Notes under the pieces: generated by a model
What the model saw: only the letters and a program-made list of their open reading frames with translations
What the model was told of the DNA's origin: nothing
Databases searched by the model: none
In this document: one piece after another, positions 11,123 to 64,000 of the stretch
How positions within the stretch are numbered: position 1 is the first letter of the stretch
How the letters are laid out: each line of letters starts with the position of its first letter
Translations under genes and position numbers: made by a program
Source: Escherichia coli
Lineage (GTDB): Bacteria; Pseudomonadota; Gammaproteobacteria; Enterobacterales; Enterobacteriaceae
NCBI RefSeq assembly: GCF_003334385.1
Contig: NZ_QOWN01000020.1
Strand: one strand, 5' to 3'
Length of the DNA stretch: 64,000 bases

Positions 11123-11199
<77 letters not shown>

Positions 11200-11256
11200 T
11201 TTAGTCCCGGCGCTTGAGCTGCGGTGGTAGTAATACCGCGTAACAAGATTTGTAGT

Positions 11257-11333
11257 GGTGGCTATAGCTCAGTTGGTAGAGCCCTGGATTGTGATTCCAG
11301 TTGTCGTGGGTTCGAATCCCATTAGCCACCCCA
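11257..11333 (+). tRNA. hisR: tRNA-His (anticodon GTG) with encoded G-1
   Basis: GGTGGCTATAGCTCAGTTGGTAGAGC...TTGTGAT...GGTTCGAATCC...CCACCCCA; extra 5' G characteristic of tRNA-His. Confidence 0.97.
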
Positions 11334-11353
11334 TTATTAGAAGTTGTGACAAT

Positions 11354-11440
11354 GCGAAGGTGGCGGAATTGGTAGACGCGCTAGCTTCAGGTGTTAGTGT
11401 CCTTACGGACGTGGGGGTTCAAGTCCCCCCCCTCGCACCA
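11354..11440 (+). tRNA. leuT: tRNA-Leu (anticodon CAG), class II with long variable arm
   Basis: 87-nt GCGAAGGTGGCGGAATTGGTAGACGCG...CTTCAGGT...GGTTCAAGTCC...CGCACCA. Confidence 0.97.
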
Positions 11441-11482
11441 CGACTTTAAAGAATTGAACTAAAAATTCAAAAAGCAGTATTT

Positions 11483-11559
11483 CGGCGAGTAGCGCAGCTT
11501 GGTAGCGCAACTGGTTTGGGACCAGTGGGTCGGAGGTTCGAATCCTCTCTCGCCGACCA
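11483..11559 (+). tRNA. proM: tRNA-Pro (anticodon TGG)
   Basis: 77-nt CGGCGAGTAGCGCAGCTTGGTAGCGC...GGTTTGGGACC...GGTTCGAATCC...CGCCGACCA. Confidence 0.97.
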
Positions 11560-15188: not shown

Positions 15189-15395
15189 GTAGATGCTCAT
15201 TCCATCTCTTATGTTCGCCTTAGTGCCTCATAAACTCCGGAATGACGCAGAGCCGTTTACGGTGCTTATCGTCCACTGACAGATGTCGCTTATGCCTCAT
15301 CAGACACCATGGACACAACGTTGAGTGAAGCACCCACTTGTTGTCATACAGACCTGTTTTAACGCCTGCTCCGTAATAAGAGCAGGCGTTTTTTT
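15189..15395 (+). ncRNA. glmZ: small RNA GlmZ (activator of glmS translation)
   Basis: Sequence recognised as GlmZ (GTAGATGCTCATTCCATCTCTTATG...); ends in hairpin GCCTGCTC-CGTAATAAG-AGCAGGCG plus T7; convergent with hemY. Confidence 0.85.
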
Positions 15396-22870: not shown

Positions 22871-23332
22871 TGTTGTATCCTGTTTTTAAGTGATGGCGGC
22901 AGTATAGCGGCATGGGGTCAGGGCTTCAAAGTTTGCACCTCTGCGGCTGCGTTCCGGCACGATTCATCCGTCACCGGAATAATGATGTCTCTGTGTAGCG
23001 AAAGATTTGTCTCTTCATTAGGGCGCAGTTACACCACGTCTTTCCCTGTTTCTGGTAAACATTATGATCAGGTTTACCGAGCGAGCATCCTCACGCTGAC
23101 GGAACTAAAAAAGACAACAAACAAACCACATTGCGATAGTGCATAAAGCCATCCTGGCGCGAGGTGCCGATCACGAAACTACCAGCAAAACATAAATCCC
23201 CACGAGTAAGCGTTATACTCGCAGCATTTCCTCACTTTTCAGACTTCATAAAGAGTCGCTAAACGCTTGCTTTTACGTCTTCTCCTGCGATGATAGAAAG
23301 CAGAAAGCGATGAACTTTACAGGCAATCCATA

Positions 23333-25994: not shown

Positions 25995-26710
25995 TGCGTT
26001 TTTACCGGCCTTTGGGGCGCATCTCGGCGCTCACCTTTGACTTGGATGATACCCTTTACGATAACCGTCCGGTGATTTTGCGCACCGAGCGAGAGGCGCT
26101 TACCTTTGTGCAAAATTATCATCCGGCGCTGCGCAGCTTCCAGAATGAAGATCTGCAACGCCTGCGCCAGGCGGTACGGGAAGCGGAACCCGAGATTTAT
26201 CACGACGTGACGCGCTGGCGTTTTCGTTCGATTGAACAAGCGATGCTCGACGCCGGGCTGAGTGCCGAAGAAGCCAGTGCAGGCGCACACGCAGCAATGA
26301 TCAACTTTGCCAAATGGCGCAGCCGAATCGACGTCCCGCAGCAAACTCACGACACCTTAAAACAGCTGGCGAAGAAATGGCCGCTGGTGGCGATCACCAA
26401 CGGTAACGCCCAGCCGGAGCTGTTTGGTTTGGGGGATTATTTTGAGTTTGTGCTGCGCGCTGGCCCGCACGGGCGCTCAAAACCGTTCAGCGATATGTAC
26501 TTTTTGGCTGCGGAAAAACTCAACGTGCCGATCGGCGAGATCTTACATGTTGGGGACGATCTCACCACTGACGTGGGTGGGGCAATTCGCAGCGGAATGC
26601 AGGCTTGTTGGATCAGACCGGAAAATGGCGATCTGATGCAAACCTGGGACAGCCGTTTACTGCCGCATCTGGAAATTTCCCGGTTGGCATCTCTGACCTC
26701 GCTGATATAA
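25994..26710 (+). CDS. yigB: HAD-family phosphatase (FMN/5-amino-6-ribitylaminouracil phosphate phosphatase)
   Basis: 238-aa ORF with HAD motif [10 protein letters not shown] near N-terminus. Confidence 0.9.
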
Positions 26711-26719
26711 TCAGCAAAT

Positions 26720-26735
26720 CTGTATATATACCCAG
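26720..26735. promoter_or_regulatory. LexA (SOS) box upstream of uvrD
   Basis: CTGTATATATACCCAG matches CTG-N10-CAG LexA consensus, about 60 bp upstream of uvrD start. Confidence 0.85.
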
Positions 26736-48434: not shown

Positions 48435-50677
<2,243 letters not shown>

Positions 50678-56132: not shown

Positions 56133-56316
<184 letters not shown>

Positions 56317-59873: not shown

Positions 59874-61205
59874 ATGGAATCACTGGCCTCGCTCTATAAA
59901 AATCATATAGCTACCTTACAAGAACGGACTCGCGATGCGCTGGCGCGCTTCAAGCTGGATGCGTTACTTATTCACTCCGGCGAGCTGTTCAATGTTTTTC
60001 TCGACGATCATCCCTATCCGTTTAAAGTGAACCCGCAATTCAAAGCGTGGGTGCCGGTAACTCAGGTGCCAAACTGCTGGTTGCTGGTGGATGGCGTGAA
60101 TAAGCCGAAACTGTGGTTCTATCTGCCGGTTGATTACTGGCACAACGTCGAACCGCTGCCGACCTCCTTCTGGACTGAAGATGTAGAAGTGATCGCGCTG
60201 CCAAAAGCCGATGGCATTGGTAGTCTGTTGCCTGCTGCGCGCGGCAATATCGGTTATATCGGTCCGGTGCCGGAACGTGCGCTGCAACTGGGTATTGAGG
60301 CCAGCAACATCAACCCGAAAGGGGTGATCGACTACCTGCATTACTACCGCTCCTTCAAAACCGAGTACGAACTGGCCTGTATGCGTGAAGCGCAGAAAAT
60401 GGCGGTCAACGGTCATCGTGCGGCAGAAGAAGCGTTCCGTTCTGGCATGAGCGAGTTCGATATCAATATTGCCTATCTGACCGCGACCGGTCATCGTGAT
60501 ACCGACGTACCTTACAGCAACATTGTGGCGCTTAACGAACACGCTGCGGTGTTGCATTACACCAAACTGGACCACCAGGCACCGGAAGAGATGCGCAGCT
60601 TCCTGCTGGATGCCGGGGCCGAATATAACGGCTATGCGGCTGACCTGACCCGTACCTGGTCGGCAAAAAGCGACAACGACTACGCACAGCTGGTGAAAGA
60701 CGTAAATGATGAACAACTGGCGCTGATCGCTACCATGAAAGCAGGCGTTAGCTATGTGGATTACCACATCCAGTTCCATCAGCGCATCGCCAAACTGCTG
60801 CGTAAACATCAAATCATCACCGATATGAGTGAAGAAGCGATGGTCGAAAACGATCTCACCGGACCGTTTATGCCGCACGGTATCGGCCATCCGCTGGGCC
60901 TGCAGGTGCATGACGTCGCCGGTTTTATGCAGGATGATAGCGGTACGCACCTCGCGGCACCGGCAAAATATCCGTACCTGCGCTGCACCCGTATTCTCCA
61001 GCCGGGCATGGTGTTAACCATTGAACCGGGTATCTACTTCATCGAATCGCTGCTGGCACCGTGGCGTGAAGGGCAGTTCAGCAAGCACTTCAACTGGCAG
61101 AAAATTGAAGCACTGAAACCGTTCGGCGGCATTCGTATCGAAGACAACGTGGTGATCCACGAAAATAACGTGGAAAACATGACCCGGGATCTGAAACTGG
61201 CGTGA
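59874..61205 (+). CDS. pepQ: Xaa-Pro dipeptidase (prolidase)
   Basis: 443-aa ORF; M24 metallopeptidase fold with HGIGH motif. Confidence 0.95.
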
Positions 61206-61819
61206 TGGAAAGCTGGTTAATTCCTGCGGCACCGGTCACGGTCGTTGAAGAGATCAAAAAAAGCCGCTTCATAACGATGTTGGCGCATACCGATGGCGTT
61301 GAGGCGGCGAAAGCGTTTGTTGAATCGGTGCGGGCAGAACACCCCGATGCCCGCCACCATTGCGTGGCGTGGGTGGCGGGTGCGCCGGATGATTCTCAAC
61401 AGCTGGGTTTCTCTGACGACGGGGAGCCGGCGGGAACGGCAGGTAAACCGATGCTCGCCCAGCTAATGGGCAGCGGCGTCGGGGAAATTACCGCTGTGGT
61501 AGTGCGCTACTACGGCGGCATATTGCTTGGCACCGGTGGGTTAGTGAAAGCGTATGGCGGCGGCGTGAATCAGGCGCTGCGCCAGCTAACGACCCAACGC
61601 AAGACGCCATTAACCGAATATACTTTGCAATGTGAATATAGTCAGTTAACCGGCATTGAAGCGTTGCTGGGGCAGTGTGACGGCAAAATTATCAACAGTG
61701 ATTATCAGGCATTCGTTCTGCTGCGGGTGGCGCTTCCGGCGGCGAAAGTGGCTGAATTTTCCGCAAAGCTGGCGGATTTTAGCCGTGGTTCATTGCAATT
61801 GTTAGCGATTGAAGAATAA
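61205..61819 (+). CDS. yigZ: IMPACT-family protein
   Basis: 204-aa ORF overlapping pepQ stop; IMPACT/UPF0029 family. Confidence 0.88.
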   Translation: MESWLIPAAPVTVVEEIKKSRFITMLAHTDGVEAAKAFVESVRAEHPDARHHCVAWVAGAPDDSQQLGFSDDGEPAGTAGKPMLAQLMGSGVGEITAVVVRYYGGILLGTGGLVKAYGGGVNQALRQLTTQRKTPLTEYTLQCEYSQLTGIEALLGQCDGKIINSDYQAFVLLRVALPAAKVAEFSAKLADFSRGSLQLLAIEE

Positions 61820-61857
61820 TCCCCACTTCGTTTTGCAGAACTAAGGAAGCGGCAGAG

Positions 61858-63309
61858 ATGCATTTTCGCGCCATTACCCGAATCGTTGGACTACTGGTCA
61901 TCTTATTTTCAGGGACCATGATTATCCCTGGGCTGGTAGCACTCATCTACCGGGATGGAGCGGGCCGCGCTTTTACCCAGACCTTTTTTGTCGCCCTCGC
62001 CATTGGCTCTATGCTGTGGTGGCCGAACCGCAAAGAGAAGGGCGAACTGAAATCCCGTGAGGGGTTTCTGATAGTGGTGCTGTTCTGGACCGTGCTGGGT
62101 AGTGTCGGTGCGCTCCCTTTTATCTTCTCGGAAAGCCCGAACCTCACGATTACCGATGCGTTTTTTGAATCTTTCTCTGGCCTGACCACCACCGGGGCCA
62201 CTACGCTGGTGGGGCTGGATTCGCTCCCTCATGCCATCCTCTTTTATCGCCAGATGCTGCAATGGTTTGGCGGGATGGGGATCATCGTGTTGGCGGTTGC
62301 GATACTGCCTATCCTCGGCGTGGGTGGGATGCAGCTCTATCGCGCAGAAATGCCCGGCCCGCTGAAAGATAACAAAATGCGCCCGCGAATTGCGGAAACG
62401 GCGAAAACCCTGTGGTTGATTTATGTCTTGCTGACCGTCGCCTGTGCGCTGGCGTTGTGGTTTGCCGGAATGGATGCCTTTGATGCCATCGGCCATAGCT
62501 TTGCGACTATCGCTATTGGCGGCTTCTCGACACATGATGCCAGTATCGGTTATTTCGACAGCCCGACTATTAACACTATCATTGCTATCTTCCTGCTGAT
62601 CTCCGGCTGTAACTACGGTCTGCACTTTTCACTGTTAAGTGGGCGTAGTCTGAAGGTTTATTGGCGCGATCCGGAATTTCGCATGTTTATCGGCGTACAG
62701 TTTACGCTGGTGGTTATTTGTACACTCGTACTGTGGTTTCATAATGTCTACAGTTCGGCGCTGATGACAATTAACCAGGCGTTTTTCCAGGTGGTATCGA
62801 TGGCGACAACCGCCGGGTTTACGACTGACAGCATTGCCCGCTGGCCGCTCTTTTTGCCGGTACTGCTTTTATGTTCAGCTTTTATCGGCGGTTGCGCCGG
62901 GTCAACGGGCGGTGGCCTGAAAGTGATCCGCATCCTGCTGCTGTTTAAGCAGGGGAACCGTGAGCTGAAACGACTGGTGCATCCGAACGCCGTCTATAGC
63001 ATTAAGCTGGGGAATCGCGCACTGCCGGAACGTATCCTCGAAGCCGTTTGGGGATTTTTCTCCGCCTATGCATTGGTGTTTATTGTCAGTATGCTGGCGA
63101 TTATCGCCACGGGCGTGGATGACTTTTCTGCCTTTGCCTCAGTTGTTGCGACATTGAATAACCTGGGGCCAGGGCTTGGCGTGGTTGCTGATAACTTTAC
63201 CAGTATGAACCCGGTGGCTAAATGGATCCTGATTGCCAACATGCTGTTTGGTCGTCTTGAGGTCTTTACATTGCTGGTGCTCTTTACCCCGACTTTCTGG
63301 CGTGAATGA
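61858..63309 (+). CDS. trkH: potassium uptake protein TrkH
   Basis: 483-aa polytopic ORF with repeated pore-loop segments (TTTGA, GGMG-like). Confidence 0.95.
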   Translation: MHFRAITRIVGLLVILFSGTMIIPGLVALIYRDGAGRAFTQTFFVALAIGSMLWWPNRKEKGELKSREGFLIVVLFWTVLGSVGALPFIFSESPNLTITDAFFESFSGLTTTGATTLVGLDSLPHAILFYRQMLQWFGGMGIIVLAVAILPILGVGGMQLYRAEMPGPLKDNKMRPRIAETAKTLWLIYVLLTVACALALWFAGMDAFDAIGHSFATIAIGGFSTHDASIGYFDSPTINTIIAIFLLISGCNYGLHFSLLSGRSLKVYWRDPEFRMFIGVQFTLVVICTLVLWFHNVYSSALMTINQAFFQVVSMATTAGFTTDSIARWPLFLPVLLLCSAFIGGCAGSTGGGLKVIRILLLFKQGNRELKRLVHPNAVYSIKLGNRALPERILEAVWGFFSAYALVFIVSMLAIIATGVDDFSAFASVVATLNNLGPGLGVVADNFTSMNPVAKWILIANMLFGRLEVFTLLVLFTPTFWRE

Positions 63310-63320
63310 TGGAGTAATAC

Positions 63321-63866
63321 GTGAAAACATTAATTCTTTTCTCAACAAGGGACGGACAAACGCGCGAGATTGCCTCCTACCTGGCTTCGGAACTGAAAGA
63401 ACTGGGGATCCAGACGGATGTCGCCAATGTGCACCGCATTGAAGAACCACAATGGGAAAACTATGACCGTGTGGTCATTGGTGCTTCTATTCGCTATGGT
63501 CACTACCACTCTGCGTTCCAGGAATTTGTCAAAAAACATGCGACGCGACTGAATTCGATGCCGAGCGCCTTTTATTCCGTAAACCTGGTGGCGCGCAAAC
63601 CGGAGAAGCGTACTCCACAGACCAACAGCTACGCGCGGAAGTTTCTGATGAACTCGCAATGGCGTCCCGATCGCTGCGCGGTCATTGCCGGGGCGCTGCG
63701 TTACCCACGTTATCGCTGGTATGACCGTTTTATGATCAAGCTGATTATGAAGATGTCAGGCGGTGAAACGGATACGCGCAAAGAAGTTGTCTATACCGAT
63801 TGGGAGCAGGTGGCGAATTTCGCCCGAGAAATCGCCCATTTAACCGACAAACCGACGCTGAAATAA
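63321..63866 (+). CDS. hemG: protoporphyrinogen IX dehydrogenase (menaquinone-dependent, flavodoxin-like)
   Basis: 181-aa [25 protein letters not shown] with flavodoxin-like N-terminus. Confidence 0.94.
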
Positions 63867-63915
63867 GCATAAAGAATAAAAAATGCGCGGTCAGAAAATT
63901 ATTTTAAATTTCCTC

Positions 63916-63943
63916 TTGTCAGACCGGAATAACTCCCTATAAT
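63916..63943 (+). promoter_or_regulatory. rRNA operon P1 promoter (rrnA-like): TTGTCA-16bp-TATAAT with upstream AT-rich UP element and GCGC discriminator
   Basis: TTGTCA at 63916-63921, 16-bp spacer, TATAAT at 63938-63943, followed by GCGCCACC; AT-rich tract 63888-63910; window ends before the 16S gene. Confidence 0.8.
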
Positions 63944-64000
63944 GCGCCACCACTGACACGGAACAACGGCAAACACGCCGCCGGGTCAGCGGGGTTCTCC

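Follow-up and report, generated by a model that had tools for sequence, protein, structure and literature searches.

The stretch of DNA analysed here (the window, 64,000 nucleotides) spans wecC through hemG of the Escherichia coli chromosome. According to the list of open reading frames, it closes with a non-coding tail of 134 bases, 63867 to 64000, directly 3' of the hemG stop codon. An earlier note on this DNA, made from the letters of the window, had placed the promoter region of a ribosomal RNA (rrn) operon immediately downstream of hemG; the gene indeed ends at 63866, one base before the tail begins. The features of hemG and of the tail are as follows.

63321 to 63866, plus strand: hemG coding sequence, 181 amino acids, menaquinone-dependent protoporphyrinogen IX dehydrogenase, annotated as hemG under 100%-identical matches.
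63874 to 63888, plus strand: FIS-consensus 15-mer GAATAAAAAATGCGC, centred at -71, an exact match to GNNNAWWWWWTNNNC; predicted site.
63892 to 63912, plus strand: UP element, -60 to -40, the A+T-rich contact tract of the alpha C-terminal domains.
63916 to 63921, plus strand: -35 hexamer TTGTCA, matching the consensus at 5 of 6 positions; the same in the P1 promoters of K-12 rrnA, rrnB, rrnC and rrnG.
63922 to 63937, plus strand: spacer of 16 bp, one bp under the 17-bp optimum; contains the variant base 63923 (-29).
63938 to 63943, plus strand: -10 hexamer TATAAT, the consensus; conserved in 7 of 7 K-12 rrn P1 promoters.
63944 to 63951, plus strand: discriminator GCGCCACC, 8 bp, -8 to -1, G+C-rich (12% A+T), as in rrnB P1.
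63945, plus strand: non-template C at -7, inside the discriminator.
63952 to 64000, plus strand: predicted transcription start A63952 and the first 49 nucleotides of the P1 transcript, by identity with rrnB and rrnA P1.

The promoter elements that the earlier note had described were all recovered. Its AT-rich, UP-element-like tract corresponds to 63892-63912, where the A+T content reaches 86%, compared with 47% over the whole window, and where the distal UP-subsite consensus AAAWWTWTTTT is matched at 11 of 11 positions (63895-63905). The near-consensus TTGTCA-16-TATAAT combination lies at 63916-63943 and scores 11 of 12 in a consensus promoter scan, and the GC-rich discriminator is the 8-bp sequence listed above. 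The base directly after the discriminator is an A, matching the layout of rrnB P1, and transcription would be expected to start at this base, A63952, nine bases past the -10 hexamer. The window ends at +49 of the predicted P1 transcript, between P1 and P2.

To place these elements among known promoters, the seven rrn promoter regions of K-12 were aligned with the window. K-12 rrnA P1, in the hemG-rrsA intergenic region (NC_000913.3, about 4035154-4035530), occupies the same place after hemG and has the same UP element, -35 hexamer, -10 hexamer, discriminator and leader; from 63850 to 64000 the two sequences are identical except for one spacer base, which bears out the earlier identification of an rrn P1 promoter. 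This base, 63923 at position -29, is A in the window but G in K-12 rrnA, as it is in rrnB, rrnC and rrnG. rrnB P1, the model for stringent and growth-rate-regulated promoters, is identical to the window from TGCGCGGTCAG (63884) to +49 apart from the -29 base, whereas the sequence upstream of -68 is unrelated, being the 3' end of murI in rrnB and the 3' end of hemG in the window. rrnC P1 is likewise identical from 63884 to the window end except at -29, and the leader at 63952-64000 is the same in K-12 rrnA, rrnB and rrnC. The promoter regions of rrnE, rrnH and rrnD share with rrnA only the -10 hexamer, the first discriminator bases GCGCC, the tandem P1-P2 layout, P2 and the boxA leader; they differ in the -35 region, the UP element, the P1-P2 leader and the end of the discriminator, which is TCC in these promoters and ACC in the window.

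The sequence that follows P1 could be read in near-identical genomes. E. coli strain 203740 (NZ_CP025913.1) is collinear with the window over all 64 kb at 99.77% identity with a single gap, and the last 701 bp of the window are 100% identical to it; the same 701 bases were matched in 5426 of 5426 complete E. coli genomes, many at 100%, with trkH and hemG annotated beneath. In strain 203740, P1 is followed by a P2 promoter, TTGACT-16-TATTAT, whose -35 hexamer follows that of P1 at a distance of 118 bp, in keeping with the earlier expectation of a P2 about 100 bp further on, and then by the boxA antitermination leader TGCTCTTTAACAA. The 16S rRNA gene begins 243 bp past the equivalent of 64000, with the 5' sequence AAATTGAAGAGTTTGATC, which projects from this strain to about 64243 in window numbering, and the gene order after P2 and boxA is 16S, tRNA-Ile, tRNA-Ala, 23S, 5S and mobB. 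Rfam covariance models, applied to strain 203740 independently of the annotation, returned the SSU at 1577 bits, the LSU at 2874 bits and 5S at 92.8 bits, and also confirmed the two tRNAs between 16S and 23S. At the equivalent junction of K-12 MG1655 the annotation reads hemG-rrsA. By projection from these near-identical genomes, the 16S gene should follow the window end in this genome too, as the earlier note had proposed in placing it just beyond the window. When 60000-64000 was scanned with Rfam (E<=1), no RNA family turned up within 63867-64000, as expected because the 16S gene lies past the window end; the sole match in the scanned region, a lncRNA inside trkH, was judged to be a chance match.

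The assignment to rrnA in particular follows from the placement: hemG lies upstream, ending at 63866, and a tRNA-Ile/tRNA-Ala spacer lies downstream in strain 203740. rrnA is among the operons with an Ile/Ala tRNA spacer (PMC4696680). The sequence elements, the identity with K-12 rrnA P1 and the downstream operon of near-identical genomes were all directly observed, and 63867-64000 is almost certainly the P1 promoter of the rRNA operon rrnA of E. coli, truncated at +49 where the window stops; from the sequence identity we infer where transcription starts, which proteins bind and how the promoter is regulated in this strain. The promoter explains why coding sequence stops at 63866, a point also made in the earlier note.

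Strain 203740 offers two further observations. The P1-P2 interval of its rrnA (tgagaatctcaacagagaaaag, L001 7200-7235), which lies beyond the window end, resembles that of K-12 rrnG, unlike that of K-12 rrnA (tgagaactccggcagagaaagc), and this suggests gene conversion between rrn operons. In the annotation of this strain, a frameshifted, partial pseudogene of the DKNYY family lies between cyaY and lptM (L009 22996-23174; about 22970-23150 in the window).

Two further points concern the base at -29 and the interval between hemG and the promoter. Among 5429 records, 255 have the exact 90-bp allele at 63850-63939 as their best match, the rest being almost all 1-2 bases off, and this exact version is present in no more than about 5% of complete E. 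coli genomes; the A at -29 is probably a neutral minority allele of the rrnA P1 spacer. Between the hemG stop and rrnA P1 (63867-63915), a hairpin scan for an intrinsic terminator found none, and 63840-63930 folds no more stably than shuffled sequences do (z-score -0.33). Without a terminator, read-through from trkH-hemG could reach the rrnA promoter region. We regard it as very unlikely that either the G-to-A change at -29 alters the strength of rrnA P1 or its sensitivity to ppGpp/DksA, or read-through from trkH-hemG feeds or interferes with rrnA expression.

It is more improbable still that the promoter is genuine but has no intact rRNA operon downstream of it in this genome, as after a rearrangement or deletion of rrnA of the kind known from engineered rrn-deletion strains. 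The window stops at +49, before P2 and 16S, and 55 of the 5426 complete genomes have no single aligned, contiguous place that covers at least 80% of a query running from the 3' end of hemG to the 5' end of 16S. However, this query has one contiguous place in the other 5371 genomes (99%), and the rRNA gene whose lack downstream the earlier note had named as evidence against its reading is thus present there; all 64 kb of the window align collinearly, at 99.77% identity, with a normal wild strain; and if rrn operons had recombined with one another, P1 would still be followed by an rRNA operon. Linkage of hemG and 16S is therefore very common, though not necessarily universal, in E. coli. At the level of the whole collection, a query of rrn P1, leader and 16S also matches at 4-10 places on a few plasmid records.

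There is only the slightest probability that the promoter is the P1 of another rrn operon, put beside hemG by an assembly error or by recombination. The core from 63884 onward is common to rrnB and rrnC P1, and a short query matches each genome at a median of 3-4 places. Against this, the junction of hemG, intergenic sequence and P1 (63850-63939) occupies one contiguous place, with at least 80% of the 90-bp query covered, in 5413 of 5426 genomes; the bases upstream of the shared block, 63867-63883, are specific to rrnA in the K-12 alignment; and the downstream tRNA-Ile/tRNA-Ala spacer of strain 203740 is of the rrnA type (PMC4696680).

The scans of the window also bear on whether the promoter elements exceed chance. 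Sites scoring at least 11 of 12 number only 2 on both strands of the 64-kb window (mean 0.7, s.d. 0.8 in 100 dinucleotide shuffles), and the composite pattern of UP subsite, -35 and -10, present a single time in the window, is absent from all 100 shuffles, which confirms that the promoter elements are beyond chance. That the match is a chance one without promoter function, in an A+T-rich intergenic tail or in a 3' untranslated or terminator region of hemG, is accordingly a reading we can all but set aside: consensus scans by themselves are no proof of function, and 62000-64000 holds 4 promoter-like sites where 1.8 were expected, but against it stand the rarity of sites of at least 11 of 12 and the absence of the composite from the shuffles, the sequence identity with the experimentally characterized K-12 rrnA and rrnB P1 promoters (PMC4446441, PMC7822876), and the lack of a terminator-like hairpin in the hemG-P1 interval, with the fold z-score given above. 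The other site of at least 11 of 12 is TTGGCA-16-TATAAT, in the region 26684-26735, where yigB ends and uvrD is about to begin. The palindrome GCTGATATAATCAGC (26701-26715) overlaps this site, and a LexA-box-like CTGTATATATACCCAG follows the site; it is the promoter of uvrD, which is under SOS regulation.

Upstream of the UP element of rrnA P1, the FIS-consensus 15-mer is of interest for its location. In a relaxed FIS scan, the -71 site scores highest in the window, and in K-12 rrnB, used as a positive control, the three best scores fall at -71, -102 and -143, which we take to be the published FIS sites of rrnB P1. These positions are said to come from Ross et al. 1990, and Hirvonen et al. 2001 reportedly footprinted FIS sites at all seven rrn P1 promoters. 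FIS site I of rrnB P1, a consensus site, is thus centred at the same position as the candidate at 63874-63888, although the sequences of the two sites differ. The strict consensus GNNNAWWWWWTNNNC itself is about as frequent in the window as chance predicts (12 sites versus 10.4 expected); because the motif is not enriched, we rely on its position and not on its presence, and from that position FIS would be expected to bind at -71. Further candidates of the relaxed scan, at -111 and -123 as against -102 and -143 in rrnB, lie inside the hemG coding sequence, and the 3' end of hemG probably contains additional FIS sites.

The paradigm of growth-rate and stringent control is provided by the rrn P1 promoters. 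In E. coli, each rrn operon has two promoters in tandem, P1 and P2, separated by about 120 bp, with a UP element, a discriminator and FIS sites. P1 is the source of high-level synthesis during fast growth, and its activity depends on the UP element and the G+C-rich discriminator as well as on FIS, H-NS, Lrp, DksA, ppGpp and the initiating NTP (PMC4696680). In rrnB P1, the UP element extends from -60 to -40 and the discriminator from -8 to -1, transcription starts 9 bases downstream of the -10 hexamer with ATP as the initiating nucleotide, and the mechanism of DksA/ppGpp action and the sensitivity of the promoter to DksA/ppGpp and to the ATP concentration have been described (PMC7822876); the UP element is bound by the alpha C-terminal domains (PMC7822876, PMC4446441). 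rrnA P1 has also been studied directly: its sequence is described as very similar to that of rrnB P1, and the two promoters behaved similarly in atomic force microscopy assays with DksA and ppGpp (PMC4446441).

The mechanism established for rrnB P1 and common to rrnA P1 can be applied to the promoter of the window by sequence identity. The sigma-70 RNA polymerase would act on the near-consensus TTGTCA and TATAAT hexamers, with two alpha C-terminal domains docking on the UP element at -60 to -40 and so providing very high recruitment, and FIS bound at -71, and probably at the sites in the 3' end of hemG, would add further activation during fast growth. Three features may together make for a short-lived open complex: the short spacer of 16 bp, the 8-bp discriminator rich in G+C, and a distance of 9 bases between the -10 hexamer and the start, for which scrunching is needed. 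Because such a complex is short-lived, output would track the concentration of the initiating ATP and would be shut down by ppGpp/DksA, which amounts to stringent and growth-rate control; the promoter of the window is thus predicted to be under negative ppGpp/DksA control and to depend on the concentration of the initiating NTP. Transcription would pass P2, some 120 bp further on, and the boxA antitermination leader before it reaches 16S, tRNA-Ile, tRNA-Ala, 23S and 5S. The promoter is the already known rrnA P1, a member of a promoter class that is among the best studied in bacteria, and holds nothing new. The copy in the window adds nothing to existing knowledge of the class and serves only as an annotation anchor, identifying the window as the wecC-to-hemG chromosomal segment that ends at rrnA.

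Several RNA features were recorded elsewhere in the window. A tRNA cluster, Arg(CCG)-His(GUG)-Leu(CAG)-Pro(UGG), at 11123-11559 is the argX-hisR-leuT-proM operon. Three small RNAs scored above the Rfam gathering score, namely the GlmZ sRNA at 15189-15395 (218 bits), the 'Erse' small RNA at 48789-49040 (319 bits), which lies inside the ubiJ coding region, and naRNA4/CssrE at 56186-56263 (92 bits), in the fre-fadA intergenic region.
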